A DNA stretch of 64,000 bases. Source: an uncultured Chitinophagaceae bacterium (lineage in GTDB: Bacteria > Bacteroidota > Bacteroidia > Chitinophagales > Chitinophagaceae). This document shows positions 42,073 to 60,429 of this stretch, piece by piece. The stretch is from the NCBI GenBank assembly GCA_964580775.1, contig CAZOLW010000001.1, positions 15,021 through 79,020 on the forward strand, written 5' to 3'. Within the stretch, counting starts at the first letter, position 1. Each line of letters starts with the position of its first letter. The notes under the pieces were generated by a model. The model ran no database searches. It saw only the letters and a program-made list of their open reading frames with translations, and was not told the DNA's origin. The position numbers were made by a program, and so were the translations under genes.

Positions 42073-42633
42073 TTGAAACTCTACATAAAATACATGGTCA
42101 GCATCCGTTGCAAAATGATTGTAAAGGAGGAATTGGCAAAGCTTGGCCTGCATTATATATTTGTTGAACTGGGTGTGGTGGATATTAAGGAAGAGCTTAC
42201 TGCTGAACAGCTTGAACAATTCAGGGCCGGTTTACTGAAATCGGGGCTTGAGCTGATGGAAGACCATAAAGCACAACTGATTGAAAAGATCAAGAACGTA
42301 ATTGTGGAAATGATTCATTATGCTGATGAACTGCCCAGGATAAAAAACTCAGACTATATCAGCCAGAAGCTGAATCATGATTATACCTATCTCGCCAACC
42401 TGTTTTCAGAATCAACAGGTACAACCATTGAACACTACATCATTGCACATAAAATAGAAAAAGTAAAGGAACTGCTTTTATACGATGAACTCAATCTTAC
42501 CGAAATATCTTACCGGCTCAATTACAGCAGTGTAGCTCATTTATCGAACCAGTTTAAGAAAGTAACCGGTCTTACCCCCACCTTCTTTAAACAGCTCCAG
42601 GAGAAAAGACGTGTCACACTCGAAGATGTGTGA
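42073..42633 (+). CDS. AraC-family regulator 1 (short N-terminal domain + HTH_18)
   Basis: TTG start; IKYMVSIRC N-terminus; HDYTYLANLFSE and YSSVAHLSNQFKKVTGLTP. Confidence 0.92.
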   Translation: MKLYIKYMVSIRCKMIVKEELAKLGLHYIFVELGVVDIKEELTAEQLEQFRAGLLKSGLELMEDHKAQLIEKIKNVIVEMIHYADELPRIKNSDYISQKLNHDYTYLANLFSESTGTTIEHYIIAHKIEKVKELLLYDELNLTEISYRLNYSSVAHLSNQFKKVTGLTPTFFKQLQEKRRVTLEDV

Positions 42634-42663
42634 ATGATGTAACTTATTTCTGCAATTGTGTAA
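42629..42663 (+). promoter_or_regulatory. 35-bp regulon motif, site 1
   Basis: TGTGAATGATGTAACTTATTTCTGCAATTGTGTAA; -7-like CATCTTTG ends 29 bp later. Confidence 0.8.
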
Positions 42664-42718
42664 GTGCAGCCTTTTGAACAAAGGCATCTTTGTGTATATA
42701 CCCTTTAAAAAAATCAAC

Positions 42719-43327
42719 TTGAAGCTATTTATCAAATACATGGTCAGTAACCGCTGCAAAATGGTTGTAAAGGAAGAGTTGAAAAAACTCGGCCTTCACT
42801 TTGTTGTTGTTGACCTGGGCGAAGTGGATATCATGGAAACTATTGCCCCCGAACAGCGGATTGAGCTGAAAGAAGCCTTACTTGCTTCCGGCCTTGAACT
42901 GATGGATGATAAACGGTCCATGCTGATTGAAAAAATTAAGAATGCCATCGTTGAAATGGTTCACTATTCAGACGAACAGATTAAAATCAATTTTTCAGAT
43001 TTTCTGAGCAGTAAATTAAATCACGACTATACTTACCTTGCCAACCTGTTTTCAGAAGTACAGGGCACTACCATTGAGCAGTTCATCATCAACCATAAAA
43101 TTGAACGCATTAAAGAACTCATTATTTATGGCGAACTGAACATTACAGAAATAGCCTGGAAAATGAATTACAGCAGTGTGGCGCATTTATCGAACCAGTT
43201 TAAAAAGAATACGGGGCTCACACCTTCGCATTTTAAACAAATGAAAGATAAACGGAGAAGTCCGCTTGAAGAAATAGGGAACCAACCTGAAATAAACGGG
43301 ATCAAAAAAACTCCCTTCGTTTTGTAA
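42719..43327 (+). CDS. AraC-family regulator 2 (paralogue of regulator 1)
   Basis: TTG start at 42719 aligns with regulator 1; the two HTH recognition segments are identical. Confidence 0.92.
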   Translation: MKLFIKYMVSNRCKMVVKEELKKLGLHFVVVDLGEVDIMETIAPEQRIELKEALLASGLELMDDKRSMLIEKIKNAIVEMVHYSDEQIKINFSDFLSSKLNHDYTYLANLFSEVQGTTIEQFIINHKIERIKELIIYGELNITEIAWKMNYSSVAHLSNQFKKNTGLTPSHFKQMKDKRRSPLEEIGNQPEINGIKKTPFVL

Positions 43328-43389
43328 TTGTGAATGATCTAAAATAAAGTAATCAGTATAAAAATAATTGAACCCATACTTAAATTAAC

Positions 43390-46300
43390 GTGAATACAGG
43401 CAACCCAATAAATGAAAAATTGGCCAAATCAACCAACCTCTTCCCCGTGGTTGGCATTGGTGCGTCGGCAGGCGGACTCGGTGCTTTTAAAAAATTATTG
43501 AAAGCCATACCGGAAAATTCGGGCATGGCTTATGTGCTGGTACAGCATCTTGACCCCAACCACGAAAGCCTGTTACCCGAAATACTGCAAAAAGTTACCC
43601 GTATACCGGTATTAGAAATTACGGATGATATTAAAGTGATGCCTGATCACATTTATGTTATCCCCAGCAATAAAATGATGATGGCTACGGATGGCATTTT
43701 AATGCTTGCCCCCAGGCCTGCAAAAAGTAAAACCGAACGCAACCTGCCTATTGACCTTTTCTTTGCTTCGCTGGCTGAAGTGCATCAGGAACATGCCATA
43801 GGAGTTGTGTTATCGGGCACTGCATCTGATGGCACACTGGGATTAAAAGCCATTAAAGAACAGGGAGGCATCACTTTTGCGCAGGACGAAGCATCGGCAG
43901 AATATGAAAGCATGCCCCATAGTGCTGTAGAGGCAGGTGTGGTAGATTTTATTTTGCCACCGGAAGATATACCGAAAAAACTGCTGGAAGTAACCAGTAA
44001 AACAATACTGAGTGATGAAGCACTGCAAAACATTCCAAAGCAGGATGAAGATGTTTTTAAACAGATCCTTTCATTGCTGCGCATCCGCAAAGGGGTTGAT
44101 TTTACGTATTACAAACAAACTACCATACGCCGCAGAATATTACGCAGGATGGTGGTAAATAAAAACGAAGAACCGGCCGACTATCTCAAATTTTTAAGAG
44201 CAAACGCAGCCGAGCAGGATTTGCTGTACCAGGATATGCTGATACCGGTAACATCCTTTTTTCGTGATAAAAAAACCTTTGAGAATTTATGCAACCATGT
44301 TTTTCCTGCTATTTTAAAAAATAAAATCCCCGGCGAAATAACACGGATATGGGTTGCGGGCTGCAGTACGGGCCAGGAAGTGTACTCTTTTGCAATATGC
44401 TTTAAAGAATTTTTAGGCGATGCGCATGAAAAAATACAGATTTTTGGCACCGACCTCAGCGAACCGGCCATTACAAAAGCCCGTAGCGGCATGTATGAAA
44501 AAAGTGAAGTAGAAGATTCCGTGTCGCCACAGCGCCTGAAGGAGTATTTCACAAAAAACAGTGGCGGTTACCAGGTAAATAAAAGCATCCGGGATATGTG
44601 TGTGTTTGCCCACCACAATTTTTTAAAGGACCCGCCCTTTGGCAAGATGGATTGTATAAGCTGCCGCAATGTGCTTATTTATATGGAGCCTTACCTGCAA
44701 AAAAAGGCGTTAACTACTTTTCATTATGCACTGAACCCTAAAGGATTTTTATTACTCGGCAAATCAGAAACTACCGGCGGTGTACCCGATCTGTTTGCTG
44801 CTGTAGAAAAAAATGACAAGCTATACACCCGTAAAGATGTGCCCGGCAGGTTTATACAGGTAACAAGCCAGCGAAGCGAACAAATTTTGAGAAATGTAAA
44901 TGTCTCTTCCAAAAGTGAGAACATCCGTACTGACTTTCAAAAAACAGCTGATGATATTTTGCTTACGAAGTATACCCCGGCCGGTGTAATAGTAAATGAA
45001 GCCATGGACATTGTTCATTTTCGTGGTAACTCAGCAAACTATTTAGAACAGGCCCCCGGCAAACCCAGCCATAATTTATTATTGATGGCAAAAAACGGTT
45101 TAGGTTTTGAGCTGCGCAATATTTTGCACAAAGCAAAAACTGATAAGCTACCGGTGGTAAAAGAAAATATTCCACTGAGTGTAAATGGCAACCTGCGCAA
45201 TATTTCTATTGAAGCAATTCCGCTGCCCAACACATTGGAGCCGTATTATTTGATCCTCTTTCACGATAATAATTTAACTGATACCGATGGATCGGTCATA
45301 AGCAATAAGAAAAAAGTTTCGTCTAAAACAAAAAAAGACGAAACAGATATTCGCATACAACTGTTAGAACAGGAACTGGCACAGGCCCGTGAAGATATGC
45401 GGAGTATTACAGAAGACCAGGAAGCAAGCAACGAAGAACTGCAAAGTGCCAACGAGGAACTGCTTAGTGGCAGCGAAGAATTGCAGAGCCTGAACGAAGA
45501 ACTGGAAACCAGCAAGGAAGAATTGCAAAGTACCAACGAAGAACTCACCGTTTTAAATCATGAATTAGTTAACCTGAACGAGCAGGTTACAGATGCAAGA
45601 AATTATTCCGAATCCATCGTGGCCACCCTTTATCAACCGCTGCTGGTGCTGGATAAACACCTGCGGGTAAAAACGGCCAACAAGGCTTTTTATAAAACAT
45701 TTCAAGTAAATGAACAGGAAACAGAAGGTGTGTTGGTGTACGACCTTGGTAACCGGCAATGGAATATCCCCGAACTGCGGAACATGCTGGAAGAAATTTT
45801 GCCGCAAAAAACACAGGTCACCAATTTTGAAGTAACACACAACTTTTCATCAATTGGAGAAAGAGTAATTCTATTGAGTGCCCTGGAATTAAGAAGAGAG
45901 AAAAAGGAAGAAAAACTGATCCTTCTCTCCATTGAGGATATTACCGAACGGAAAAAATCGGAAGTAATCATAAAAAAAAGCAGTGAGCACTTCAGGCGGC
46001 TTGTTAAGGATCTGCCGGCGGCAGTTTATTCCTGCGATCAAACTGGCCTTATAAATTTTTATAACGATGCTGCTGTAAAAATATGGGGCCGCAAGCCCGA
46101 AATTGGAAAAGAGCTTTGGAGTGGTTCGTATAAAATGTTTACACCCGATGGTTCAGTATTAGCTCCGGAAAAAAGTCCCATGGCAATGGCGTTGAAAGAA
46201 GCCCGTTTTATTCCCGGTGAAGAAATTATTATTGAACGGCCCGATGGCAGCCGTTCTTTTGTACGTGTATATCCACAACCTGAATTTAATGCGTCAGGTG

Positions 46301-49218
46301 AATTAATCGGTGCAATCAATATGGGTTTTGATGTTACCGAACAGGTGATTGCCCGGAAAAAAATAGAAGAAAGCGAAACAAAGTTTCGAACCCTGCTTGA
46401 AGATGCACCTGTAGCAACCTGCTTATTTGCCGGAAGAGAAATGATTATAGAAATGGCCAATGAACTGATGATAGGTTATTGGGGTAAAGATAAAAATGTA
46501 ATAGGAAAACCATTAAAAGATGCTGTTCCGGAATTAAGAGAGCAGCCATTTCTTAACATATTAGATGAGGTATTTACAACAGGCAAAACCTACGAGGCGA
46601 AGAATGAACTTGCACAACTTGTGGTAAACGGTGTATCAGGCAATTACTATTTTGATTATACGTATAAACCCATTCACAATGCTTCAGGCGAAGTGTATGG
46701 CATTATTAATATGGCAGTAGATGTAACAGAGCAGGTAATTGCCCGCAAAAAAATTGAAGAAAGTGAAAAACAATTCAGGTTGATGGCAGAATTGATGCCG
46801 CAAAAAGTATGGACCACTGATGCAGAAGGAAACAAAAACTATTTCAATCAAACATTGCTTGACTATGCAGGTTATACATTTGAAGAATTAAAAGGCGATG
46901 GATGGTCAAAAATTATTCATCCGGAAGATTGGGAAAAGAATAAAATACCATGGGAAGAATCCGTGAGAACAGGAAAGGATTATGAAGCAGAAAACAGGCT
47001 GCTCCGTAAAGACGGAATCTACTTATGGCATCTTACAAGAGCAGTTGCTTTAAAAGATGATGATGGCAACATAAAAATGTGGGTAGGTTCTAAAACTGAA
47101 ATACAGGAGCAACGTGAACAGAAAGAAGAATTGGAAAGATCAGTAGCAGAGCGAACACATGAATTACGAAAAGCGAATCTTGAGCTGGAAGAAAAACACC
47201 ATGAATTGTTTATCACCAAGGAAAAATTGCTTACTGAATATTCACGCAGTTTAATTGAAGCCAGTCTCGATCCGCTTGTTACCATCAACCCGGAAGGAAA
47301 GATCACTGATATGAATCTTGCCACAGAGAAAATAACCGGTCTGTCGAAGGAAAAACTGATTGGCTCTGATTTCTTTACTTATTTTACTGAACCCGAAAAA
47401 GCAAGTAAAGTATACGAAGAAGTATTTCAAAAAGGATCGGTTATAAACGCTCCTCTTATTCTCCGTCATGCAGATGGAACATTGACTGATGTACTTTTAA
47501 ATGGGTCGGTTTATAAAGATGGCAAAAATAATGTACTGGGCGTGGTGCTGGTTGCAAGGGATGTTACCGATGAAAAAAGAATTGAAAGGGAATTAACAGA
47601 GGCCATTGTATTTGCCGAACTGGCAACGGGGCTTGCAGAAGATGCAAAAATGAAAGCAGAAAATGCTGCACTGATTGCTGAGGATGCGGTAAAAGCAAAA
47701 CAGCAGTTTTTAAGCAATATGAGTCATGAAATACGCACACCAATGAATGCAATCATTGGCTTTACAAAAGTGGTATTGAAAACAGATCTTACTGCCAAAC
47801 AACGGGAATATTTAACGGCCATAAAACTCAGTGGTAATTCATTAATTGTTCTCATCAATGATATTCTTGACCTGGCGAAAGTGGATGCTGGAAAAATGTC
47901 CTTTGAAGAAATCCCCTTTAAACTGTCATCTTCCATCTCAGCCATGATGCATTTGTTTGAAGCCAAGTTCCAGGAAAAGAATTTAGAACTGGTAAAGGAA
48001 TATGATAACAGTATCCCTGATGTATTGCTGGGCGATCCGGTTCGTTTGCACCAGATTATTTTAAACCTGATGAGTAATGCAGTAAAATTTACATCAGCAG
48101 GAAAAATAACAGTGAGCCTTCACCTGCTGCGGGAGGATGAACAAAAGGTTGAGATTGAATTTTCAATTGCTGATACAGGAACAGGAATTCCTGAAAATAA
48201 AACAGAGCAGATCTTCGAAAAATTTCACCAGGCATCGAGTGACACCTCCAGGTTATATGGCGGAACAGGATTAGGGCTTGCCATTGTTAAACAACTGGTG
48301 GAATCGCAGGGAGGAACCATTCGTGTTAAAAGTGAAATGGGTGTTGGTTCTGTGTTCAGTTTTACATTGCCCTTTAAGAAAACAAACCAACCGGTTGAAT
48401 CGGAAATTGAACTGCTGAAATTTGATACTGATAACAAAAACATCAAAGTACTGGTGGTGGAAGATATTGCACTCAACCAGTTACTGATGAAAACATTGCT
48501 GGATGATTTCGGCTTTGAACGGGAGATGGCTGAAAATGGAAAAATTGCCATTGAAAAACTGAAAGCAAAAAACTACGACATTATTCTCATGGATCTGCAA
48601 ATGCCTGAAATGAACGGGTTTGAAGCAACAGAATATATCCGCAAAACCATGAAATCAAAAATTCCCATCATTGCATTAACAGCCGATGTTACAACGGTTG
48701 ACCTGGCAAAATGCAAAGCAGTTGGCATGAACGATTACATTGCCAAGCCCGTTGATGAGCGGTTGCTGTACAGCAAAATAGTGGGACTGGTAAAAAAACC
48801 TCTGCATGAGAAAAAAAATGAAACCCGGAAAACGGTAAAGGCTGATGCTGCAAATACAAAATGCATCAATCTTGATTATTTAAACCAGCGCACAAAATCA
48901 AATCCTGTATTGATGATGGAGATGATTTCGCTGTATTTAGAACAAACCCCTCCCCTTGTGAGCCTGATGAAGCAGAGCTTTCTTGATAATAACAGGGAAC
49001 TGCTGTATGAAGCTGCACATAAAATAATTCCTTCTTTTACCATCATGGGCATCAGTAAAGATTTTGAAACGATGACAAAAAAAATAAAAGACTACGCCCG
49101 CTCACAACAGGAGGCAACTGGAATAAACGAGCTGATACTGCAGGTTGAAAATATTTGTACACAGGCATGTATTGAATTAAAAGAAGAGTACACAGCCATT
49201 AAAAATTATAACACATGA
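43390..49218 (+). CDS. CheB-CheR-PAS(x5)-HisKA-HATPase-REC-HPt hybrid histidine kinase
   Basis: CheB GASAGG/QHLD/SDG triad; CheR GCSTGQE and SCRNVLIY; EELQS coiled coil; multiple PAS; FLSNMSHEIRTP; DLQMP; AAHK HPt. Confidence 0.92.
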   Translation: MNTGNPINEKLAKSTNLFPVVGIGASAGGLGAFKKLLKAIPENSGMAYVLVQHLDPNHESLLPEILQKVTRIPVLEITDDIKVMPDHIYVIPSNKMMMATDGILMLAPRPAKSKTERNLPIDLFFASLAEVHQEHAIGVVLSGTASDGTLGLKAIKEQGGITFAQDEASAEYESMPHSAVEAGVVDFILPPEDIPKKLLEVTSKTILSDEALQNIPKQDEDVFKQILSLLRIRKGVDFTYYKQTTIRRRILRRMVVNKNEEPADYLKFLRANAAEQDLLYQDMLIPVTSFFRDKKTFENLCNHVFPAILKNKIPGEITRIWVAGCSTGQEVYSFAICFKEFLGDAHEKIQIFGTDLSEPAITKARSGMYEKSEVEDSVSPQRLKEYFTKNSGGYQVNKSIRDMCVFAHHNFLKDPPFGKMDCISCRNVLIYMEPYLQKKALTTFHYALNPKGFLLLGKSETTGGVPDLFAAVEKNDKLYTRKDVPGRFIQVTSQRSEQILRNVNVSSKSENIRTDFQKTADDILLTKYTPAGVIVNEAMDIVHFRGNSANYLEQAPGKPSHNLLLMAKNGLGFELRNILHKAKTDKLPVVKENIPLSVNGNLRNISIEAIPLPNTLEPYYLILFHDNNLTDTDGSVISNKKKVSSKTKKDETDIRIQLLEQELAQAREDMRSITEDQEASNEELQSANEELLSGSEELQSLNEELETSKEELQSTNEELTVLNHELVNLNEQVTDARNYSESIVATLYQPLLVLDKHLRVKTANKAFYKTFQVNEQETEGVLVYDLGNRQWNIPELRNMLEEILPQKTQVTNFEVTHNFSSIGERVILLSALELRREKKEEKLILLSIEDITERKKSEVIIKKSSEHFRRLVKDLPAAVYSCDQTGLINFYNDAAVKIWGRKPEIGKELWSGSYKMFTPDGSVLAPEKSPMAMALKEARFIPGEEIIIERPDGSRSFVRVYPQPEFNASGELIGAINMGFDVTEQVIARKKIEESETKFRTLLEDAPVATCLFAGREMIIEMANELMIGYWGKDKNVIGKPLKDAVPELREQPFLNILDEVFTTGKTYEAKNELAQLVVNGVSGNYYFDYTYKPIHNASGEVYGIINMAVDVTEQVIARKKIEESEKQFRLMAELMPQKVWTTDAEGNKNYFNQTLLDYAGYTFEELKGDGWSKIIHPEDWEKNKIPWEESVRTGKDYEAENRLLRKDGIYLWHLTRAVALKDDDGNIKMWVGSKTEIQEQREQKEELERSVAERTHELRKANLELEEKHHELFITKEKLLTEYSRSLIEASLDPLVTINPEGKITDMNLATEKITGLSKEKLIGSDFFTYFTEPEKASKVYEEVFQKGSVINAPLILRHADGTLTDVLLNGSVYKDGKNNVLGVVLVARDVTDEKRIERELTEAIVFAELATGLAEDAKMKAENAALIAEDAVKAKQQFLSNMSHEIRTPMNAIIGFTKVVLKTDLTAKQREYLTAIKLSGNSLIVLINDILDLAKVDAGKMSFEEIPFKLSSSISAMMHLFEAKFQEKNLELVKEYDNSIPDVLLGDPVRLHQIILNLMSNAVKFTSAGKITVSLHLLREDEQKVEIEFSIADTGTGIPENKTEQIFEKFHQASSDTSRLYGGTGLGLAIVKQLVESQGGTIRVKSEMGVGSVFSFTLPFKKTNQPVESEIELLKFDTDNKNIKVLVVEDIALNQLLMKTLLDDFGFEREMAENGKIAIEKLKAKNYDIILMDLQMPEMNGFEATEYIRKTMKSKIPIIALTADVTTVDLAKCKAVGMNDYIAKPVDERLLYSKIVGLVKKPLHEKKNETRKTVKADAANTKCINLDYLNQRTKSNPVLMMEMISLYLEQTPPLVSLMKQSFLDNNRELLYEAAHKIIPSFTIMGISKDFETMTKKIKDYARSQQEATGINELILQVENICTQACIELKEEYTAIKNYNT

Positions 49219-49311
49219 AATATCCATAAAAATTATCAAGCTAATTTACGCAGGCAGCGATGATAATTTTTATGGATATACTATGTGGCCAAAAAAAATA
49301 AAAATGAACAC

Positions 49312-49746
49312 ATGAAAAACGAAAACAAAATATCCCTTTTCCTGGTAGATGATGATGCTGTGTTTTTAAAACTCCTGGAAATTGAGCTGCTGCAGCATGC
49401 TGATTTTACTATTACAACCTTTTCATCAGGAGAGTTGTGCCTTGAACAACTGTCGCAAAACCCCGATGTAATCATTTTAGATTATCACCTAGATGGCATC
49501 AATAAAAATGCAATGAACGGGCTGGAAACCCTTGACAGAATAAAAGCAGCCAATGCCGATATTCCCGTTGTAATGCTGTCATCACAGGACAGTATTGATG
49601 TGGCCATCAACTGTATGCATCACAGAGCATTGGATTATGTGGTGAAAAGCGAAACAGCCTTTCTGCGCCTGCAGAAAATTATCACCACTCTTTTCAGTTA
49701 TAAAAAAATGGAGAAAGAGCTGAACTGGTATATGGACAGAATGTAA
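49312..49746 (+). CDS. Receiver-only response regulator
   Basis: VDDD, ILDYHL and YVVK; no output domain. Confidence 0.9.
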   Translation: MKNENKISLFLVDDDAVFLKLLEIELLQHADFTITTFSSGELCLEQLSQNPDVIILDYHLDGINKNAMNGLETLDRIKAANADIPVVMLSSQDSIDVAINCMHHRALDYVVKSETAFLRLQKIITTLFSYKKMEKELNWYMDRM

Positions 49747-49772
49747 GCCCCTTCCTTTGCAGGATAGAAACA

Positions 49773-49807
49773 TGTGAATTGTGTAAGTTATTTCAATAGT
49801 TGTGTAA
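49773..49807 (+). promoter_or_regulatory. 35-bp regulon motif, site 2
   Basis: TGTGAATTGTGTAAGTTATTTCAATAGTTGTGTAA; CAATTTTA ends 29 bp later. Confidence 0.8.
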
Positions 49808-49916
49808 CAAATGCAGCAGAAATAGCTTCAATTTTACATACTATTGATTTAATCATTCTATCTAAAATCCAACTGGAGAATTAACCTAAAGCAGATCTTC
49901 AGAAAAACATTGTGAA

Positions 49917-50378
49917 ATGAATCAACCGCATACCCCGCTCAACATACTGCTTGCAGATGATGATATTGACGACCGTTTTTTCTTTGATAAAGCATTAAAG
50001 GAAATAAAGGTGGCATCCAACCTGGTAACTGTGAGCAATGGAGAGCTCCTGATGAAATATCTTACAGAACGTTTACTGCAGCTTCCTGATATTCTTTTTC
50101 TTGATTTAAGTATGCCCCGTAAAACCGGGTTTGAATGCCTGGCCGAAATAAAAGAGAATGACCAATTAAAAGATCTTCCCGTCATTATTTTCACTACTTC
50201 CTTTACAAGGGGTATTGACTTTGAAGATAACCTCAAAAAAACATTCAGCAAAATGGGTGCTGAAGGCTATATACGCAAGCCGGGCGATTTTGAAGAACTC
50301 AAAGAGGTAATTCATCAAACACTGCTGAAGATGATGAACAGAAACAATCCTGTGGAAACCCAAACGGACCGGCAATAA
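49917..50378 (+). CDS. Receiver-only response regulator
   Basis: LADDD, FLDLSMP and YIRKP. Confidence 0.92.
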   Translation: MNQPHTPLNILLADDDIDDRFFFDKALKEIKVASNLVTVSNGELLMKYLTERLLQLPDILFLDLSMPRKTGFECLAEIKENDQLKDLPVIIFTTSFTRGIDFEDNLKKTFSKMGAEGYIRKPGDFEELKEVIHQTLLKMMNRNNPVETQTDRQ

Positions 50379-50451
50379 TGCCAGCCCTTACATTCAATAT
50401 AAGAGAACTCAAACAAGTATTCTGTAACAACCTGTTTAAAACAACTCAATC

Positions 50452-50895
50452 ATGACTTCAAAGAAATTACAAATACTCCTGGCCGATGATGATATTGATG
50501 ATTGTCATTTCTTTACTGAAGCTCTGGAAGTGTTGCCTGTAGATACAAAACTTAAAATTGTGAATGATGGAGTTGAACTGATGGATTATCTCTCAGAAAA
50601 TACAGAACAGCTTCCGCATGTACTTTTTCTTGATATTAATATGCCACGCAAAAACGGGTTTGAATGCCTGTCGGAAATTAAGCATCACGAACAGATGAAA
50701 GACCTTCCTGTTATAATGTTTTCTACATCCAACGAACGGGATAAAATAAATATTCTTTTCAAAAACGGGGCAGATGTATATATCCGCAAGCCAAGCAATT
50801 TTGCACAGTTGGTACAGGTTATTAATCACGCTTTACCGATGGCAGCCGAAAATATATTTTCGAATGGTAAATTAAAGTATATCCTCAACGCATGA
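50452..50895 (+). CDS. Receiver-only response regulator
   Basis: LADDD, FLDINMP and YIRKP. Confidence 0.92.
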   Translation: MTSKKLQILLADDDIDDCHFFTEALEVLPVDTKLKIVNDGVELMDYLSENTEQLPHVLFLDINMPRKNGFECLSEIKHHEQMKDLPVIMFSTSNERDKINILFKNGADVYIRKPSNFAQLVQVINHALPMAAENIFSNGKLKYILNA

Positions 50896-51365: not shown

Positions 51366-51369
51366 AAAA

Positions 51370-52736: not shown

Positions 52737-52752
52737 TCTCCCCCACCCAACG

Positions 52753-52787
52753 TGTGAATCTTACAACTGTTTCCCCGAATTGTGTAA
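52753..52787 (+). promoter_or_regulatory. 35-bp regulon motif, site 3
   Basis: TGTGAATCTTACAACTGTTTCCCCGAATTGTGTAA; CCAACTTA ends 29 bp later. Confidence 0.78.
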
Positions 52788-52837
52788 CGGTTTTCCTGTA
52801 AAATATCCCCAACTTACTGTTCTAAAACAAACAGATT

Positions 52838-53197
52838 ATGAAAGGGAAAACAAACAGCAACAAACTGCATGTAAAGCAGATCAGCAACAACGCATTAACC
52901 AGTGAAATGGAATATCCACTTTACCCCGTTAATGAAGACATCTATAATCAATTGCTGCGGGAAGAATTAGTTGATCCCGAATATTTTGCTGCAGAAAAAA
53001 CCTATGGCCCGGCTGTTAAAAACGGTGATGTTTCCCAAACTGATTTTATAATTGCTATCTCAGGCAAAGACCTCGATATTCCGGGATCTGAACTGGATGA
53101 TGAGCAGGAAAAAATTGGCAGCGAAGATGAAGAGAATAATTACTACAGTGTAGGTGGTGACAATCATACAAACCTGGAAGAAGAGAAAGGAGAATAA
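52838..53197 (+). CDS. Acidic hypothetical protein
   Basis: C-terminal DLDIPGSELDDEQEKIGSEDEENNYYSVGGD. Confidence 0.75.
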   Translation: MKGKTNSNKLHVKQISNNALTSEMEYPLYPVNEDIYNQLLREELVDPEYFAAEKTYGPAVKNGDVSQTDFIIAISGKDLDIPGSELDDEQEKIGSEDEENNYYSVGGDNHTNLEEEKGE

Positions 53198-53253
53198 ACA
53201 AAGAAACAACAGATGCTGTGGGTTTAAAAGAACCCTTTGATAAAATAAACCGT

Positions 53254-53724
53254 ATGAAAAAGGTATTAATTGCACTTGATTATTTCCCCTCTGCACAACA
53301 GGTGGCGAATGATGGTTTTGCATTGGCAAAATCAATGAAAGCCGAAGTGGTGCTGCTGCATGTGGTAACTGATCCGGTGTATTATTCTTCAACTGCCTAC
53401 TCTCCCATTATGGGGTTTGGCAGTTATTCAGATATTGATTTAATGCAACTCGATATTGATGATGGCTTAAGAAAAGCATCACAGGATTTTCTGGATGAAA
53501 CAAAAAACCATCTTGACAGTACGTCGATTAAAACCATGGTAGAAGAAGGCGATGTAGCAGATTCAATTTTAGAAGCTTCAAAAAAGATAAATGCAGATCT
53601 GATAGTGATGGGATCGCATAGCAGGAAATGGCTGGAAGAGGTGATTATGGGCAGTGTTACGGCAAAAGTGTTACATCATACAGCCATTCCTGTTTATATT
53701 ATTCCTGTGAAAAGCAAAAACTAA
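53254..53724 (+). CDS. Universal stress protein
   Basis: KKVLIALD, LLHVV, ADLIVMGSHS and GSVTAKVL. Confidence 0.93.
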   Translation: MKKVLIALDYFPSAQQVANDGFALAKSMKAEVVLLHVVTDPVYYSSTAYSPIMGFGSYSDIDLMQLDIDDGLRKASQDFLDETKNHLDSTSIKTMVEEGDVADSILEASKKINADLIVMGSHSRKWLEEVIMGSVTAKVLHHTAIPVYIIPVKSKN

Positions 53725-54072
53725 CCGGGTGTTTAATATCCCTGTTATGAAAAAAAATCAGTTCGTTACTTCTGTCAGCATTATATAACCAATTAAAACT
53801 ACTTACAATGATGAAACTTATATCCATCTTTCTTTTTTTCAATGAGCAGGAAAAGCCTAAAAAAAGAAAAAAACATTACAGGGTATTGACGATCTGTAAA
53901 AAACCAAATACATAAACACTTTCTTCACCACTTTTTAAGAATTACTGCATACAACATTTTATGTCTGCATGCTTAAGAAACTATTTTCCTGTCTCTGCCA
54001 ACTATATTAACGGCTGTACACGGCAGCTGCAACTTCGTTTTCATTTACACATTTCTGTTCTTTTTTAATATG

Positions 54073-54107
54073 TGAGAATCTTGCAACTCTTTCTGATAAT
54101 TGTGTAA
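54073..54107 (+). promoter_or_regulatory. 35-bp regulon motif, site 4
   Basis: TGAGAATCTTGCAACTCTTTCTGATAATTGTGTAA; GAACTTTG ends 30 bp later. Confidence 0.78.
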
Positions 54108-54163
54108 TACATCAGGAACCGAAAGCGATGAACTTTGCATTTCATTAACTTAACAAAGACATC

Positions 54164-55624
54164 ATGAAAAAATTATTACTCTTAGCAATCTGCACTGCTT
54201 TTGCCTTTATGACAAATGCACAAACAGAAGATAAGAAATGGAACATTGGAGTATTTGGAGGTGCCACACAATACAGAGGCGATCTTGGAAATGACTGGTA
54301 TAAAACCGATATGGCCTTTTATGGCTTAGGCGGTGTTTCTGTTTCAGCCTACCTGGCAAAACATTTTGATATTACCCTGATGGCAGCCAGAGGAGAGATT
54401 GGTTATAACCGCACAAATGGCAGATTCTTAAATCGTGTAACAACTTCTTCACTGAATTTAAAGTTACATCTGCTCGGACCGCAATTTATTGTACGCCCCT
54501 ATGCATTTGTTGGTGTTGGCGCAATGTTGTATGATGATAACCCGGCCATTTCAAAAAGATTTGATTTAGCTGCTCCAACAACAGGTGCAGGATTTAACAT
54601 TAAACTTGGCCCTTCAGTAATGCTTAACCTGCAGGAAACATTTATGTTCACCCGCACAGATAACAGAGACGGAGTTACCGGCGGCAAGAATGATTCATAT
54701 CTGTCGCACACTGCAGGTCTCTCGGTTAATTTCGGTAAGAAAAAAGATGCTGATAATGATGGTGTAGCTGATCGTTTGGATAAATGCCCTAACACACCTC
54801 CTGCAGTAGCTGTTGATAAAACAGGTTGCCCGCTTGATATGGATAAAGATGGTGTAGCAGATTATTTAGATGCATGCCCTGATGTTGCCGGCCTGGTTAC
54901 ATTAAGTGGCTGTCCTGATAAGGATGGTGATGGTATTGCCGATAAAGATGACCGCTGCCCTGATGTAGCAGGAACTTCAGCCTTTAAAGGTTGTCCTGAT
55001 ACAGATAATGATGGCGTTCCTGATATTGATGATCGTTGTCCTGATACAAAAGCAGGCTACAAAGTAGATGCAGCCGGTTGTGCAATGGATAATGATAAAG
55101 ATGGTATTATGAACGAAGACGACCGTTGCCCTGATATGGCAGGCCCTGTAAGTTTAAGAGGTTGTCCTGATACAGATGGCGATGGTGTGGCAGATATTGA
55201 TGACCGTTGTCCGGCTATTAAAGGTACAATCACCAATAAAGGTTGCCCTGAAATTACACCGGAAGTGGAACTGAAAATTACGCAGATTGCCAATAAGATT
55301 TTCTTTGAAACAAACAGTGATAAACTGAAAGTTGCCTCACTGGAACAGTTAGATCAACTGGTAGTAATATTGAAAGAGTATGAAACAGCTAACCTGTCTA
55401 TTGGCGGACATACAGACAGCCAGGGATCTGATGCATTCAATATCACTCTTTCACAAAAGCGTACAGAGTCCGTTAGACTTTACCTCATCAGCAAAGGAAT
55501 TTCAGAATCACGCTTAACAGCAACCGGTTATGGTGAAGGAACACCGATAGCTGATAATAAAACAGCTGCCGGACGTGCAAAAAACAGAAGAGTTGAATTA
55601 AAAACATCTTATACAAACAAGTAA
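54164..55624 (+). CDS. OmpA-family protein (beta-barrel + thrombospondin type 3 repeats + OmpA C-domain)
   Basis: DxDxDGVxDxxDxCP repeats; GHTDSQG and NRRVE. Confidence 0.93.
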   Translation: MKKLLLLAICTAFAFMTNAQTEDKKWNIGVFGGATQYRGDLGNDWYKTDMAFYGLGGVSVSAYLAKHFDITLMAARGEIGYNRTNGRFLNRVTTSSLNLKLHLLGPQFIVRPYAFVGVGAMLYDDNPAISKRFDLAAPTTGAGFNIKLGPSVMLNLQETFMFTRTDNRDGVTGGKNDSYLSHTAGLSVNFGKKKDADNDGVADRLDKCPNTPPAVAVDKTGCPLDMDKDGVADYLDACPDVAGLVTLSGCPDKDGDGIADKDDRCPDVAGTSAFKGCPDTDNDGVPDIDDRCPDTKAGYKVDAAGCAMDNDKDGIMNEDDRCPDMAGPVSLRGCPDTDGDGVADIDDRCPAIKGTITNKGCPEITPEVELKITQIANKIFFETNSDKLKVASLEQLDQLVVILKEYETANLSIGGHTDSQGSDAFNITLSQKRTESVRLYLISKGISESRLTATGYGEGTPIADNKTAAGRAKNRRVELKTSYTNK

Positions 55625-55655
55625 GATTTTAGTATGGTTTGGTTTTACTTTGGAC

Positions 55656-55687
55656 AAGGGCTGTTGTTTTCAACAGCCCTTTTTTTA
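55656..55687 (+). terminator. Intrinsic terminator
   Basis: AAGGGCTGTTG-TTTT-CAACAGCCCTT followed by a T run. Confidence 0.8.
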
Positions 55688-55745
55688 GTTGCTGATTGAT
55701 CGAAATACTCCGCCGGAAGTAAGAGGAGAAACACCCGATTCAATG

Positions 55746-55780
55746 TGTGAATGTTGTAACTTATTACAGAAGTTGTGTAA
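55746..55780 (+). promoter_or_regulatory. 35-bp regulon motif, site 5
   Basis: TGTGAATGTTGTAACTTATTACAGAAGTTGTGTAA; CATCTTTA ends 30 bp later. Confidence 0.8.
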
Positions 55781-55849
55781 TGCTTACACAGCTCAAAATA
55801 ACCATCTTTACCTCCTGAGAAAATTCATTCACAACTTAAATTACACAAG

Positions 55850-56548
55850 GTGAAATACCTGATAACCGAACGCTTTTCAACAACGCTGCAGATTGTTGCA
55901 CTTATTTGTTTGATCAGCTATTCCGGTTTTACAGCCAACCGGGATTCACAAATGAAATCAATGGCTGATTCAACAGCTGTAAAACAGACTGCATTGGAGC
56001 TTACAATTAATATGCACACCCTCTGGGATGACAATGCCACCTGGACCAGAACTGTATTACTCTGTTTTATTGATGATCTTCCGGGTAAAGAACAGGCAAC
56101 AAAACGCCTGCTGCAGAACCAGGCAGACATTGGCAACTCCATGAAACCTTATTATGGCCTGGAAGCAGGCAGGAAACTGACACTGTTACTGAACAAACAT
56201 ATACAGATCTCAGCCGAAATGGTATACGCAGCTAAATCAAAAAACAAATCGTTACTGGAAGCTGCCAATGAACAGTGGCATGAGAATGCTGATGAAATTT
56301 CTGCATTCCTCAGTAAAAGAAACCCTGATTGGGTTCTGCAGGATATGAAGGAAATGATGGATCAGCAGATCAAACTGATTACTGACCAGGTGCAGCAGAG
56401 AATGAACAAAAACTATGATGAAGACATCATTGCTTATGATAAAGCGCATGCTGAAATATTGAAAATGTCGGTAATTATCTCAAAAGGGATCATCAAACAG
56501 TTCCCTGAGAAATTTTTACCACAGGTAACGGCAACAGTTTATAAATAA
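55850..56548 (+). CDS. Secreted all-helical hypothetical protein
   Basis: GTG start, signal-like N-terminus, LWDDNATWTR...RLLQNQADIG...PYYG helical domain. Confidence 0.7.
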   Translation: MKYLITERFSTTLQIVALICLISYSGFTANRDSQMKSMADSTAVKQTALELTINMHTLWDDNATWTRTVLLCFIDDLPGKEQATKRLLQNQADIGNSMKPYYGLEAGRKLTLLLNKHIQISAEMVYAAKSKNKSLLEAANEQWHENADEISAFLSKRNPDWVLQDMKEMMDQQIKLITDQVQQRMNKNYDEDIIAYDKAHAEILKMSVIISKGIIKQFPEKFLPQVTATVYK

Positions 56549-56553
56549 TCGAC

Positions 56554-57225
56554 ATGAAAGAACATCTCGTTAAACTGATATCAATTGAAAAGCTGACACA
56601 TGATGTGCTGAGGATTGTTACAGAAAAACCTGAAGGGTTTAGCTTCACACCAGGGCAGGCTGCAGAACTATCCATTAATAAAGATGAATGGAAAGAAGAA
56701 AAAAGGCCATTTACCTTTACCTGTTTACCGGAAGATGATTACCTCGAGTTTACGATTAAAACATACCCGTTACACAAAGGCGTAACCAACCAGCTTTTTT
56801 CATTGAAGCCTTCTGATGAATTAATTCTGCATGAAGTATTTGGAGCCATTCAATATAGGGGCGAAGGTATTTTTATTGCCGGCGGTGCAGGAGTAACGCC
56901 ATTCATTTCCATCTTCCGTTACCTGAAATCAACAGGTAAAACAGGAAATAACAAACTCATTTTTGCCAATAAAACAAAAGCTGATATTATTCTTGAACAG
57001 GAATTCAGAAAGCAGCTGGGAAATAATTTCATCAACATTTTATCCGAAGAAAAAGCAGCAGGTTATGAAAATGGAATGATCAGTGAAGACTTCATTGAGG
57101 CACACAGCAGCGGAACAGATCAGCTGTTTTATATATGCGGTCCCAAACCAATGATGGAAGCAGTTGAGAAACAACTGGCCGCCCTGCATGTAAAAGAAGA
57201 ATCGATCATTAAAGAAGCCATCTGA
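56554..57225 (+). CDS. FAD-binding oxidoreductase (ferredoxin/flavodoxin-NADP reductase-like)
   Basis: FTPGQ, RPFTFT, AGGAGVTPF and YICGP. Confidence 0.9.
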   Translation: MKEHLVKLISIEKLTHDVLRIVTEKPEGFSFTPGQAAELSINKDEWKEEKRPFTFTCLPEDDYLEFTIKTYPLHKGVTNQLFSLKPSDELILHEVFGAIQYRGEGIFIAGGAGVTPFISIFRYLKSTGKTGNNKLIFANKTKADIILEQEFRKQLGNNFINILSEEKAAGYENGMISEDFIEAHSSGTDQLFYICGPKPMMEAVEKQLAALHVKEESIIKEAI

Positions 57226-57306
57226 CTTTCACCAAATCATTGCATCCGTTATCATTTTACCGGATGCCTTCATTTAATATAAACGAAAAACAAAAACGAT
57301 TCAATC

Positions 57307-57780
57307 ATGAAAGCAAATATTGGTATCTCTGAAAAACATACAGACAGTATAACATCTCTCCTTTCTGTATTATTAGCTGATGAAATGATTCTATATGTTA
57401 AAACAAGAAAATTTCACTGGAATGTAAGCGGTGAAAGCTTTATGGAATTACATAAGCTGTTTGAAGGCCAGTACAAGCAGCTGGAAGAATATATTGATGA
57501 AGTTGCTGAACGCATTAATAAGCTGGGCGAAAAAACGATTGGCACATTGTTTGAATTCAGTGCTCTGGCCACACTGAAAGAAGCACCCGGTAAATATCCA
57601 TCACAAAAAAATATCCTCCAGGAATTACTGAGCGACCATGAAACACTTACCAGGCAGTTGAGAAAATATGTTACTGAATGCAGCGAGAAATACAAAGATG
57701 CCGGCACTGCTGACTTTTTAACCGGTCTTATGGAACAGCATGAAACTGCAGCATGGGTATTACGCAGATATCTTAATTAA
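57307..57780 (+). CDS. dps: DNA starvation/stationary phase protection protein
   Basis: KTRKFHWNVSG, LHKLFE, DEVAERI and HETAAW. Confidence 0.95.
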   Translation: MKANIGISEKHTDSITSLLSVLLADEMILYVKTRKFHWNVSGESFMELHKLFEGQYKQLEEYIDEVAERINKLGEKTIGTLFEFSALATLKEAPGKYPSQKNILQELLSDHETLTRQLRKYVTECSEKYKDAGTADFLTGLMEQHETAAWVLRRYLN

Positions 57781-57798
57781 ACAACAATTGCTTTTATC

Positions 57799-58665
57799 AT
57801 GTTAAGCAAAAGCATTCAAGAAATCAAAAACCTGAAGCCCATTGTTAAAGCAAAAGGTTTTGCCACAAAGCAATCAATAAGGCTTAGTGATAAAACACTG
57901 GCCAAAACAAAAGAGGCCAATAACTTTTTAACGGATATTGCTGATGTTGTTCTGTTCATACAAAGCATCATCAGGGAAACATTTTCAGGAGGCTTTGAAT
58001 GGAGAGAATTTTTCCGTCAATGTTTTCAAACAGGCTATAAAACATTGCCGTTAATTTCAGTAACCGGAACTATTATGGGTCTTGTACTCACTATTCAATC
58101 AAGACCGGTACTGGTAGATTTTGGTGCAGTAACCATGCTGCCCGGAATGGTAGCCGTATCACTCATCAGGGAAATGGGTCCTGTTATTACAGCCCTCATC
58201 TGCGCAGGAAAAATCAGTTCAGGCATTGGTGCAGAACTGGGCTCCATGAAAGTAACGGAACAGATTGATGCAATGGAAGTTTCTTCCACCAATCCCATCA
58301 AATTCTTAGTAGTAACAAGAGTGCTTGCTGCTACACTGATGATTCCATTACTGATCTTATATGCTGATGGACTGGGTATTCTGGCCAGTTGGGCAGGTGC
58401 CAATATGAAAGGCGATGTAACTCTTTCCTTATATTTTTCACAGGCTTTTAGCCAGGTTGGATTTATCGATCTGATACCTGCAGTCATTAAGTCTTTTTTC
58501 TTTGGAGCGGTCATTGGATTGGTAGGCAGCTATAAAGGTTACAATGCCGGACGTGGAACAGAAAGTGTTGGTGTTGCAGCCAACTCGGCGGTTGTAACCG
58601 CATCGCTGTGGGTATTGATTGTAGATATGATTGCCGTACAAATTACAGATATGATGATATCATGA
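57799..58665 (+). CDS. mlaE: MlaE-family ABC permease
   Basis: REMGPVITALICAGKISSGIGAELGSMKVTEQIDAM. Confidence 0.92.
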   Translation: MLSKSIQEIKNLKPIVKAKGFATKQSIRLSDKTLAKTKEANNFLTDIADVVLFIQSIIRETFSGGFEWREFFRQCFQTGYKTLPLISVTGTIMGLVLTIQSRPVLVDFGAVTMLPGMVAVSLIREMGPVITALICAGKISSGIGAELGSMKVTEQIDAMEVSSTNPIKFLVVTRVLAATLMIPLLILYADGLGILASWAGANMKGDVTLSLYFSQAFSQVGFIDLIPAVIKSFFFGAVIGLVGSYKGYNAGRGTESVGVAANSAVVTASLWVLIVDMIAVQITDMMIS

Positions 58666-59435
58666 TAACAGAACAAACAAACATATCAGTTGAGCAAAAA
58701 AATTCTGCTGAACCGGTGATTGAAATCAGCAACCTGAAAAAAACATTTGGCGAACAGGAAGTGCTGAGCAATGTTAGCTTATCGCTTCTCAATGGTGAAA
58801 ACCTGGTTGTACTTGGAAAATCCGGATCGGGCAAATCTGTTTTAATTAAATGTATTGCAGGCTTACTCGCTGCTGATAGCGGAACAATAAAAGTGTTTGG
58901 CGAAACAGTATCAACCATGAACCGGAAAGAAATGGCTGAAATGAGAAAGAAAATCGGTTTCCTTTTTCAGTTGGGTGCATTGTATGATTCCATGACAGTT
59001 AAAGAAAACATTGAATTTCCGTTGCAGAGAATCAGGAAAGATCTTTCAAAAAAACAACGGGAAGAAAAAGTACTGGAAGCATTGGAAAATGTTGACCTCG
59101 CAGATTCAATTGACAAAATGCCTTCCCAGCTTTCGGGTGGTATGAAGAAAAGAATCAGCCTGGCAAGAACAATTGCAGTAGATCCCATGATCATGCTGTA
59201 CGATGAGCCAACAACCGGTCTCGATCCTGTTACCTCGTATGAAATAAGCGAATTGATTAATCGTGTGCAGAAAAAATATAAAACATCTTCCATCATTATC
59301 ACCCATGATATTAAATGTGCGCTGCATACAGCCAACCGGATGATGATGATCAAAGATGGCGAAGTGTACAAAGAGGGCAAAAAAGAAGAATTTGAACAGT
59401 CAGATGATCCTTTGATTCAATCGTTCTTTCAATAA
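58662..59435 (+). CDS. mlaF: MlaF-family ABC ATPase
   Basis: GKSGSGKS, LSGGMKKR and DEPTTGLDP; ATGA overlap with mlaE. Confidence 0.92.
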   Translation: MITEQTNISVEQKNSAEPVIEISNLKKTFGEQEVLSNVSLSLLNGENLVVLGKSGSGKSVLIKCIAGLLAADSGTIKVFGETVSTMNRKEMAEMRKKIGFLFQLGALYDSMTVKENIEFPLQRIRKDLSKKQREEKVLEALENVDLADSIDKMPSQLSGGMKKRISLARTIAVDPMIMLYDEPTTGLDPVTSYEISELINRVQKKYKTSSIIITHDIKCALHTANRMMMIKDGEVYKEGKKEEFEQSDDPLIQSFFQ

Positions 59436-59514
59436 ACAGTTAACCGGTTATGCATTGAAGTATTATTATTTTTCAAGCAATACTCATTTTATAAAACGTA
59501 TATAAAACACATTT

Positions 59515-60261
59515 ATGGCAACGCATTCACAAAACTTTAAAATCAGGCTGGGTCTGTTTGTAGCAGGTGGACTGGCACTGTTTATTGCCGCTGTATTTAT
59601 CATTGGCAAACAGAAGAACCTGTTTGATCCCGTGTTTAAACTTACAGCAACTTTTAACAATGTAAGCGGGCTGCAGGTAGGAAATAATATCCGTTTTGCC
59701 GGTATTACTGTGGGCACTGTTGACAATATCGTTATCATCAACGATTCAACTGTAAGAGTGGATATGCTGCTCAGGAAAACGGTGAAGAAATTTATCCGGA
59801 CAGATTGTGAAGTAGCCATTGGATCAGAAGGAATTATCGGGGATCGCCTGGTGGTTATTTCACAGGGAACTGCAGAAGCCCCACTCGTAAAAGAAGGACA
59901 AGCGCTTACATCAACAGAGCCTGTTGAAACAGATGCCATCATGGCCAGCTTACAGGTAACAGCCGGTAATGCTGAAATCATTACAGAGCAGCTTGCAGAA
60001 ATCACCGTTAAAATCAACAGCGGCAAAGGAACATTGGGACGGTTGATATCGGATCCAACCATTGCCAACAACCTGAGCCAGTCAATGACGAATATTAAAG
60101 AAAGCAGCGAAGGGTTAAGTGAAAATATGGAAGCCGCTAAAGACAATTTTCTGTTGAGAGGATATTACAAACGAAAAGCAAAAGCAGCAGAGAAGAAGGC
60201 AGCTGATAAAAAAGCAGCTGAACAAAAAGCAGCTGAGCAGAAAGAAAAGAATAAGCAGTAA
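59515..60261 (+). CDS. mlaD: MlaD/MCE-family protein
   Basis: Single TM; FNNVSGLQVGNNIRFAGITVG; SEGIIGD. Confidence 0.92.
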   Translation: MATHSQNFKIRLGLFVAGGLALFIAAVFIIGKQKNLFDPVFKLTATFNNVSGLQVGNNIRFAGITVGTVDNIVIINDSTVRVDMLLRKTVKKFIRTDCEVAIGSEGIIGDRLVVISQGTAEAPLVKEGQALTSTEPVETDAIMASLQVTAGNAEIITEQLAEITVKINSGKGTLGRLISDPTIANNLSQSMTNIKESSEGLSENMEAAKDNFLLRGYYKRKAKAAEKKAADKKAAEQKAAEQKEKNKQ

Positions 60262-60394
60262 CAGCAACATTCAGTTTAAAACAACCTTATATAATTATCA
60301 TCTGTTGCTGTATACATAAGCTGGTGCAACTGTACTCTCAAATACACACAACCCAACTTCATACGGGTATACACTTAATTAACACTTACTGACA

Positions 60395-60429
60395 TGTGAA
60401 CTATGCAATTCTTACATACAATTGTGTAA
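60395..60429 (+). promoter_or_regulatory. 35-bp regulon motif, site 6
   Basis: TGTGAACTATGCAATTCTTACATACAATTGTGTAA; CAACTTCG ends 30 bp later. Confidence 0.75.

Follow-up and report, generated by a model that had tools for sequence, protein, structure and literature searches.

The stretch analyzed here, which we call the window, comprises 64,000 nucleotides of an uncultured Chitinophagaceae bacterium (C1:15021-79020, in a genome of 4.7 Mb and 84 contigs). It harbors an island in which two small AraC-family regulators in tandem, AraC1 and AraC2, are followed by a hybrid kinase and a series of further units, and our subject is a repeated DNA motif found upstream of these units. A sequence-only reading of the window had described six copies of a 35-bp operator and assigned them to the tandem AraCs. 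When the window was searched with the pattern from that reading, TGWGAA-N3-TRYAA-N13-TTGTGTAA, all six copies were matched exactly where they had been placed (42629, 49773, 52753, 54073, 55746 and 60395), on the plus strand and ungapped, and none was found in dinucleotide-preserving shuffles of the window (0/100). The six are genuine; the count was incomplete, as a seventh full copy was detected on the minus strand at 37645 (C1:52665), scoring 43.7 bits against a weight matrix built from this genome's own copies. The six repeated boxes are the upstream half of a promoter module of about 70 bp that is found across Bacteroidota. The modules and the genes of the core operon are listed below, with weight-matrix scores in bits.

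37580..37647, minus strand: seventh module, 35-mer at 37611-37645, with the -7 box TATCTTCG in register; 43.7 bits.
42094..42633, plus strand: AraC1, a small AraC-family regulator of 179 amino acids (aa) from its ATG (MVSIRCKM...); Pfam HTH_18/HTH_AraC.
42627..42694, plus strand: module 1, operator at 42629-42663 (TGTGAATGATGTAAC / CTGCAATTGTGTAAG); 50.3 bits.
42685-42692, plus strand: -7 box of module 1, CATCTTTG.
42740..43327, plus strand: AraC2, the proposed binder, 195 aa; Pfam HTH_18.
43390..49218, plus strand: hybrid kinase of 1942 aa, CheB-CheR-PAS(xN)-HisKA-HATPase-REC, with an HPt-like tail.
49285..49746, plus strand: REC_a, a receiver-only protein, third conserved member of the core operon.
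49771..49838, plus strand: module 2, operator at 49773-49807; 45.1 bits; heads REC_b, REC_c, REC_d and the histidine kinase HK399 (49917-52569).
52751..52818, plus strand: module 3, operator at 52753-52787; 44.7 bits; heads a 119-aa hypothetical protein (52838-53197) and Usp (53218-53724).
54071..54138, plus strand: module 4, operator at 54073-54107; 40.3 bits; heads an OmpA/thrombospondin-repeat outer-membrane protein (54164-55624).
55744..55811, plus strand: module 5, operator at 55746-55780; 46.0 bits.
60393..60460, plus strand: module 6, operator at 60395-60429; 36.7 bits; heads a Big_5/ice-binding-like protein (60515-62524) and an outer-membrane protein (OMP) beta-barrel gene (62536 onward).

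From each of the six plus-strand copies to the next start codon (GTG 55850 in the case of module 5), the distance is 50-109 nt. Module 1 heads AraC2, the hybrid kinase and REC_a, and the kinase is predicted to be co-transcribed with AraC2 across a gap of 62 nt. The copy that had been noted before AraC2 is this module, at 50.3 bits; it stands 76 nt before the AraC2 ATG, at what proved to be a conserved autoregulatory position. AraC1, as also noted, has no copy of its own, the best score upstream of it being -9.7 bits.

In the whole genome, the strict pattern gave 12 matches, and the weight matrix gave 29 sites at or above 20 bits and nearly none at 10-20 bits. Since this score gap is nearly empty, the motif family is sharply bounded, with a bimodal distribution of scores. 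Twenty-two copies lie outside the window: eight just past its end (C1:79687-86344, corresponding to L001 688-7345) and the remaining ones on nine other contigs, including C2, C10, C12, C18, C19, C21, C24 and C43. The genome-wide scan suggested by the sequence-only reading thus extended the regulon to about 29 sites spread across contigs, and the notion of a regulon limited to the island had to be given up. Divergent pairs were seen among the copies past the window end, for example, 86252- and 86344+.

The anatomy of the site was deduced from two alignments, one of the 29 genome copies over 80 nt and one of 207 copies from other genomes, and both yielded the same conserved positions. An A at position -2 was found in 29/29 genome copies and in 196/207 copies elsewhere. 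It is followed by G at position 0, TGTGAAT at positions 1-7, n-A, and T-G/A-T/C-A-A-C at positions 10-15. After a T-rich spacer comes the proximal part, A-R-T-T-R-T-G/A-T-A-A-C at positions 26-36, with C at 36. The 35-bp box therefore captured the core of the motif and was too short, the site extending to A-2, G0 and C36. The consensus can be written as two 15-bp direct repeats, TGTGAATnATGTAAC / nnnnARTTRTRTAAC. When the columns of one half were compared with those of the other, the similarity was 0.575 at an offset of 21 and 0.23-0.34 at the other offsets from 15 to 24. Because it peaks at 21 alone, the site consists of two 15-bp direct repeats two helical turns apart, and the 21-bp spacing between TRYAA and TGTAA recorded before was borne out. 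Each 15-bp repeat is itself divided into two sub-boxes separated by about 8-10 bp, as would suit the two helix-turn-helix (HTH) units of one AraC domain. A Crp/Fnr-type site, with TGTGA as a half-site, was considered and rejected: there is no dyad symmetry, and the 21-bp direct repeat alone stands out.

Conservation is confined to the recognition positions; the spacers (positions 16-25 and 37-57) vary, as do the flanks. This bears on whether we are dealing with a dispersed repeat of a mobile or selfish kind, similar to a miniature inverted-repeat transposable element, with no regulatory role, as the many copies clustered in one island might suggest. Such a repeat was rejected because spacers and flanks are not conserved. 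In addition, every copy lies between genes and points toward a gene that starts about 74 nt further on, orthologous genes in other classes are preceded by sites with the same conserved positions, and no Rfam element was matched in the window. We regard the mobile-repeat explanation as effectively refuted.

The second half of the module is a box resembling the Bacteroidota -7 element. It starts 21-22 nt after C36, the end of TGTAAC, in 188/207 sites (register 0 in 158 and -1 in 30). Its TT at positions 62-63, which was not part of the seed pattern, is present in 29/29 genome copies and in 206-207/207 copies elsewhere. Among the 207 sites, A59 was counted in 183, T62 in 206, T63 in 207, T64 in 165 and G65 in 123, and the first box position (58) is C in 109 and T in 29. 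The box, CAyCTTTG, is a degenerate variant of the housekeeping TAnnTTTG of Bacteroidota. The claim of a degenerate -7 element whose end lies 29-30 bp past the end of each site was in agreement with these data, given the invariant TT62-63 and a register of 0 or -1. Positions 34-37 are AAC(a) in nearly all sites, and no -33 TTTG was found, which would be expected about 19-21 nt upstream of the box. TAnnTTTG itself is enriched 5- to 8-fold at -40 to -20 before start codons of this genome compared with its reverse complement, which shows that the organism uses housekeeping consensus promoters. The flavobacterial -7 box has been reported at -12 to -5 (PMC9723704). With the box taken at that position, the distal repeat would span about -69 to -55 and the proximal repeat about -48 to -34 relative to the predicted transcription start. 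The site as a whole, at about -72 to -34, lies entirely upstream of the -7 box, and the proximal repeat (TGTAAC) appears to stand where a -33 element would lie. As the -33 element is absent and the -7 box is weakened, the polymerase would be expected to fire only with an activator bound. The preference for C over the housekeeping T at position 58 may reflect selection for a promoter with low basal activity that depends on an activator, or a specific contact.

The same geometry could be read as a promoter for an alternative sigma factor, with TGTAAC as a -35-like element, CAyCTTTG as a -10-like element, and the distal repeat as an accessory. The distance from TGTAAC to the -7-like box is indeed fixed within 1 bp over more than 200 sites, and the non-consensus C at the first box position is consistent (109/207). 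An AAC core is typical of the -35 elements of extracytoplasmic function (ECF) sigma factors. However, 21-22 nt from TGTAAC to the box is too long for ECF sigmas, the box retains the A, the TTT and the G of the housekeeping -7 consensus, and a sigma factor does not account for the distal repeat (about -69 to -55), which directly repeats the proximal one and is conserved as strongly. The module also lacks a conserved sigma gene, and we consider a sigma promoter very unlikely. The sign of the regulation likewise rests on the layout. Some AraC-family proteins repress, and the regulator could bind as a repressor or as a dual regulator, but a site placed wholly upstream of the -7 box, in the position of the -33 element and beside a weakened box, is the layout of an activator-dependent promoter and differs from that of operators at which RNA polymerase is blocked. 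Repression or dual control thus seems highly improbable.

We then examined the conservation of the site around AraC2 orthologues, in the best 80 loci among more than 554 relatives (AraC2 identity of 78-86%; 1.26 Mb in all). The hosts of these loci are Flavobacterium, Lutibacter, Chitinophagaceae, Prolixibacteraceae, Cytophagales, Bacteroidales, Paludibacter and Ignavibacteria. The weight matrix found 209 sites (191 in the same orientation as the AraC gene and 18 in the opposite one) versus 2 in a reversed-sequence control, and a sequence-only Infernal covariance model found 206. The distance from the end of the motif to the ATG had a median of 74 nt, with an interquartile range of 66-89. In 58 of the 80 loci, a strong site is located 70-86 nt before the start of the AraC gene. 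Another eight loci have the site in front of a single gene for a small secreted protein (hyp172) that is immediately followed by AraC, and in about six others the site is upstream of AraC by 100-360 nt. When the proteins of the 80 loci were clustered, AraC was found in 80, the kinase in 66 and the receiver-only protein in 61. The kinase follows AraC after a gap of about 30-100 nt and shares 60-73% identity with the window kinase in the latter's C-terminal part, and the receiver-only gene comes next. No other DNA-binding family recurred in the clustering of these loci, and no sigma gene was conserved. A LytTR- or OmpR-type binder was rejected on the same ground, no such gene being conserved in the 80 loci. 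Genes found repeatedly downstream of the sites belong to the families AraC (53), ice-binding-like (15), a secreted 150-aa protein (14), YtxH-like (10) and CsbD (9), and further to receivers, small membrane proteins, OMP barrels, Dps and OmpA.

A tandem AraC pair is present in only about 6-7 of the 80 loci, and the unit found phylum-wide consists of the site, AraC2, the hybrid kinase and the receiver. In 19 Flavobacterium loci (for example, L077 and L082), CheR and CheB are encoded by genes of their own, located after the kinase gene. In the window, CheB and CheR are fused to the N terminus of the kinase (43390-44800). The CheB/CheR-kinase arrangement looks like a gene-fusion event within the same signaling module.

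The co-occurrence of the motif and AraC was assessed at two levels. Within the genus, 8/8 genomes with an AraC2 orthologue (E<=1e-74) have 4-29 matches to a relaxed pattern, and 16/17 genomes without an orthologue have 0-1 (Fisher p=8e-6), the exception being an assembly that is 75% complete. The motif and the AraC2 orthologue appear to have been gained and lost together within the genus. For the phylum, 401 genomes were searched with a 63-nt pattern that includes TT62-63, with the reversed pattern as a control. The pattern was found in 33/401 genomes and the control in 0. An AraC2 homologue at E<=1e-66 is present in 39 genomes, 22 of them with the motif (table 22/17/11/351; Fisher p=7e-18). 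At E<=1e-58, a homologue is present in 63 genomes, which hold 29 of the 33 motif genomes (table 29/34/4/334; p=2e-22). In most genomes with both, the site is on the contig that carries AraC, within a few kilobases of it. One exception is G238, in which the AraC orthologue is truncated at a contig end.

The AraC proteins themselves are small. AraC1 (179 aa) and AraC2 (195 aa) are paralogues with 63% identity; neither has a receiver or kinase domain, the kinase being a separate gene. In an AlphaFold model of AraC2 (mean predicted local distance difference test score, 79.5), a short beta-alpha-beta-beta-alpha N-domain of about 60 aa is joined by a long linker helix to a seven-helix C-domain with two HTHs. 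The fold of the C-domain matches AraT, AdpA, MarA, SoxS and Rob, with template-modeling (TM) scores of 0.65-0.79 on the target (Foldseek; 1bl0, 7w5w, 1d5y). The N-domain weakly matches the metal-binding (HMA) domain of CopA in the fold search. S3-x-x-C6 is kept in AraC2 orthologues and is C-x-x-C in paralogues, Cys6 being the single conserved cysteine. By sequence, generic AraC domains alone were found in the PDB, and only generic AraC models of NCBIfam were matched, below threshold. The DNA-binding domain is almost invariant among AraC2 orthologues. Among the 80 loci, Flavobacterium orthologues with S101/S152 have sites with A for G at motif positions 11 and 32, which correspond to each other in the two repeats, and G for C at position 36; since this is one AT-rich clade, we take the covariation as a hint only.

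A second AraC lineage is physically connected with the site. The stop codon of AraC1 (TGA, 42631-42633) lies inside the distal repeat of site 1 (…GAT GTG TGA ATG…), and the stop codon of an AraC1-type gene lies in or against the distal repeat also in L009, L010, L011 and L013. An AraC gene of 59-68% identity likewise has its stop codon within the site or immediately before it in G241, G353, G354, G014, G021, G025 and G034, and this arrangement is conserved across families. With the AraC2 type carrying the site upstream and the AraC1 type carrying it at the stop codon, two AraC lineages are physically joined to the operator. No operator was found upstream of the AraC1-type paralogues in seven other tandem loci. 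The feed-forward amplification from AraC1 to AraC2 proposed earlier is therefore tenable in genomes with the tandem pair, in which AraC1-type genes have no site before them, and elsewhere the arrangement points to positive autoregulation. Because tandem pairs are rare, positive autoregulation of the AraC-kinase-receiver operon would be the general logic.

These comparisons favor an AraC protein as the binder, through the co-occurrence and the linkage in 58-72 of the 80 loci, and they make the tandem pair to which the operator had been ascribed the exception. Several observations weigh against an assignment to AraC2. Three genomes of family f37 (G055, G060 and G065) have 1-3 genuine sites and no close AraC2 orthologue. 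These sites score 29-40 bits, have the -7 box in register, and precede an orthologue of the OmpA protein of the window (OmpA-TSP3), a SOUL-family protein and a DUF748-BrkB-AI-2E operon (L112-L115). The homologue in f37, an HMA-AraC protein starting with MVCPRC, is only 37-39% identical, differs in both putative recognition helices, and has no site nearby; neither a regulator adjoining the f37 sites nor a close kinase was found in those genomes. The reverse was also seen: of 17 genomes whose AraC homologue is 61-75% identical, 13, mostly of family f45, have no motif even by a profile model. It follows that sequence identity does not cleanly delimit orthology and specificity. Two genomes (G350 and G354) carry AraC and sites without a close kinase. 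The co-occurrence tests treat genomes as independent despite their kinship, and any regulator traveling with the island would also yield such co-occurrence. Finally, a sigma-like reader would likewise be consistent with so rigid a distance to the -7 box.

It could be that another transcription factor, encoded elsewhere, binds the operator and that the AraC-kinase operon is only its most conserved target. The genuine f37 sites without a close AraC2 orthologue and the several genomes with an AraC homologue and no sites would be explained in this way, and co-occurrence cannot separate a regulator from a co-inherited target. Against this, AraC is the only DNA-binding gene conserved in the 80 loci, and no transcription factor besides AraC2 was found downstream of the sites in this genome. 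The 21-bp direct-repeat geometry is a signature of AraC domains, and the site is joined physically to two separate AraC lineages. Even in f37 the motif tracks an intact distant homologue: among five genomes, the three with an intact homologue all have the motif, the one without a homologue has none, and the fifth, whose homologue has two in-frame TGA codons, has none. This leans, on thin evidence, toward the distant MVCPRC homologue as the binder in f37. We consider a factor encoded elsewhere unlikely.

Taken together, the copies probably represent the upstream half of an activator-dependent promoter of about 70 bp that is switched on by the AraC2-type regulator. The traits of class II activation by AraC/XylS proteins are found here, namely 21-bp direct repeats, a proximal repeat at the upstream promoter element and a linked AraC gene, and a class II operator of the AraC/XylS type is supported but not proven by the comparative data. 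What the data establish is the motif family with its geometry, its conservation throughout the phylum, its linkage to and co-occurrence with the AraC gene, and the make-up of the regulon. We infer AraC as the binder, activation rather than repression, the position of the transcription start and the control of AraC by the kinase and receiver. In the mechanism we propose, two AraC DNA-binding domains would sit on the two repeats, on the same face of the helix. AraC2 would act alone in most genomes and, in this one, possibly with its paralogue AraC1. The proximal subunit would substitute for the absent -33 contact and recruit the housekeeping RNA polymerase to the weak -7 box. The regulator would activate its own operon (AraC2, PAS hybrid kinase and receiver) in a positive feedback, together with about 30 promoters of stress and envelope genes. 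How AraC is controlled is a matter of speculation: a phosphorylated receiver might contact the HMA-like domain, or redox or metal chemistry might take place at Cys6.

The mechanistic kind, a tandem-repeat site for an AraC/XylS-type activator, is already known, and its reach across a phylum is unusual. XylS at Pm on the TOL plasmid and AraC at araI1-araI2 (pBAD) are class II activators that bind direct repeats with a 21-bp period. As in these systems, the sites here are asymmetric half-sites of 15-17 bp located roughly from -70 to -35, the proximal one overlaps the upstream hexamer, the AraC domain has two HTHs, and autoregulation is common. Unlike in these systems, the core promoter is the -33/-7 type of Bacteroidota, the -33 element is absent, and C replaces T at the first position of the -7 box. 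The short N-domain is HMA-like instead of being a cupin or sugar-binding domain, the gene is in an operon with a hybrid kinase, the regulon would include about 30 stress genes instead of one catabolic operon, and binding is predicted. MarA, SoxS and Rob share the two-HTH fold, stress regulons of dozens of promoters, and asymmetric sites that depend on orientation and distance; however, a marbox is one site of 20 bp that takes up a monomeric regulator, made of the DNA-binding domain alone or in fusion, whereas here there are two equally conserved repeats and an extra N-domain. Within the phylum, the AraC-type outputs of the hybrid two-component systems (HTCS) of Bacteroides have predicted direct repeats of 12-16 bp with a mean center-to-center distance of 21 bp (Ravcheev et al. 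2013, PMC3878776). HTCS and the system described here are alike in phylum, in the type of DNA-binding domain, in the 21-bp direct repeats and in the coupling of kinase signaling to an AraC domain. HTCS proteins combine sensor, kinase, receiver and AraC domain in one polypeptide and control a local polysaccharide utilization locus; in contrast, here a separate AraC protein of 180-195 aa and a separate kinase gene are associated with a dispersed stress regulon that is conserved across classes. No description of the operator, of its regulator or regulon, or of a master stress regulator of Bacteroidota was found in full-text literature searches.

The genes headed by the sites outside the window come from simple open reading frame (ORF) calls. 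Just past the window end, the genes that follow a copy include those for CsbD, a PAS kinase, a cupin, an OMP barrel and DJ-1/PfpI. For the copies on the rest of the genome, inspection of the sequences pointed to a YceI-like protein, an alpha/beta hydrolase, two further proteins of the OmpA family, an acyl-ACP desaturase-like protein, an AI-2E transporter and a 61-aa membrane protein. Altogether, about 29 promoters of stress-type genes (Usp, Dps, CsbD, OmpA, DJ-1/PfpI, YceI-like, desaturase, ice-binding) carry the site, and the same families recur in other genomes. The layout of a general stress regulon, with many promoters and a site before the regulator's own gene, appears to be present.

To our knowledge, Bacteroidota lack RpoS, sigma-B and EcfG. 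In Bacillus cereus, the RsbK-RsbY-RsbM system comprises a hybrid kinase with CheR-type methylation and controls sigma-B. The RsbKY system is named in PMC9912610. The regulons of sigma-B in Bacillus, of RpoS and of EcfG-PhyR contain the same kinds of genes (CsbD, YtxH-like, Dps, Usp, OmpA-like, DJ-1/PfpI and small membrane proteins), and a positively autoregulated regulator operon and a CheB/CheR hybrid kinase upstream of the output are further likenesses to stress regulons run by sigma factors. Unlike in those regulons, the output here appears to be an activator that works with the housekeeping polymerase, and no partner-switching proteins are present. As a tentative interpretation, which we find possible and hold less firmly than that of the promoter itself, Bacteroidota may run a phylum-wide general stress response by an activator rather than a sigma factor. 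In it, the near-invariant HMA-like/AraC protein would receive its input from a relay of PAS hybrid kinase, receiver and CheB-CheR, and possibly through the conserved cysteine, and would redirect the housekeeping polymerase to the fixed cassette of about 70 bp before about 30 stress and envelope genes and the regulator's own operon. If true, a named regulator with a precise operator would allow the regulon to be predicted in any Bacteroidota genome, and the signaling module (PAS hybrid kinase, receiver-only protein, CheB/CheR) would be defined. The promoter cassette would be usable as a stress reporter or as an inducible promoter in Bacteroidota genetics. The question also bears on how Bacteroidota coordinate stress, dormancy and freeze protection.

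The remaining features of the window that concern the modules are the following.

36577-37281: 234-aa membrane protein, the next long ORF after the seventh module, starting 329 nt downstream.
43329..43363, plus strand: "half-site" TGTGAATGATCTAA; -0.6 bits.
55656..55681, plus strand: intrinsic-terminator-like hairpin of 11 pairs followed by a T run, closing the OmpA unit before module 5.
55850-60261: unit headed by module 5, with a 232-aa hypothetical protein (GTG 55850), an FNR-like reductase, Dps and MlaE-MlaF-MlaD.

The element at 43329 had been taken for a half-site preceding the hybrid kinase. It is not a site: it scores -0.6 bits and lacks a proximal repeat, TT at 62-63 and an in-register -7 box. 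Its overlap with the end of AraC2 resembles that of site 1 with the end of AraC1, and it probably remains from a duplication of the AraC gene. For module 5, the GTG start at 55850 agrees with the family median of 74 nt between motif and start. The ice-binding genes, headed by module 6 in the window, have the operator in 10 other loci. Between the seventh module and the 234-aa gene there are only ORFs of 40 aa or less, and a long leader, a small protein or a small RNA may be made there. Outside the window, at C24:4473-4669, between divergent HMA-AraC paralogues, we found the sequence ATTATATACAA-N10-AATCATATAACAA, with TTACTTTG about 20 nt further on. It is possibly a related tandem-repeat operator of the paralogous regulator, in a single instance, and it hints that the whole small HMA-AraC family might share this operator architecture.

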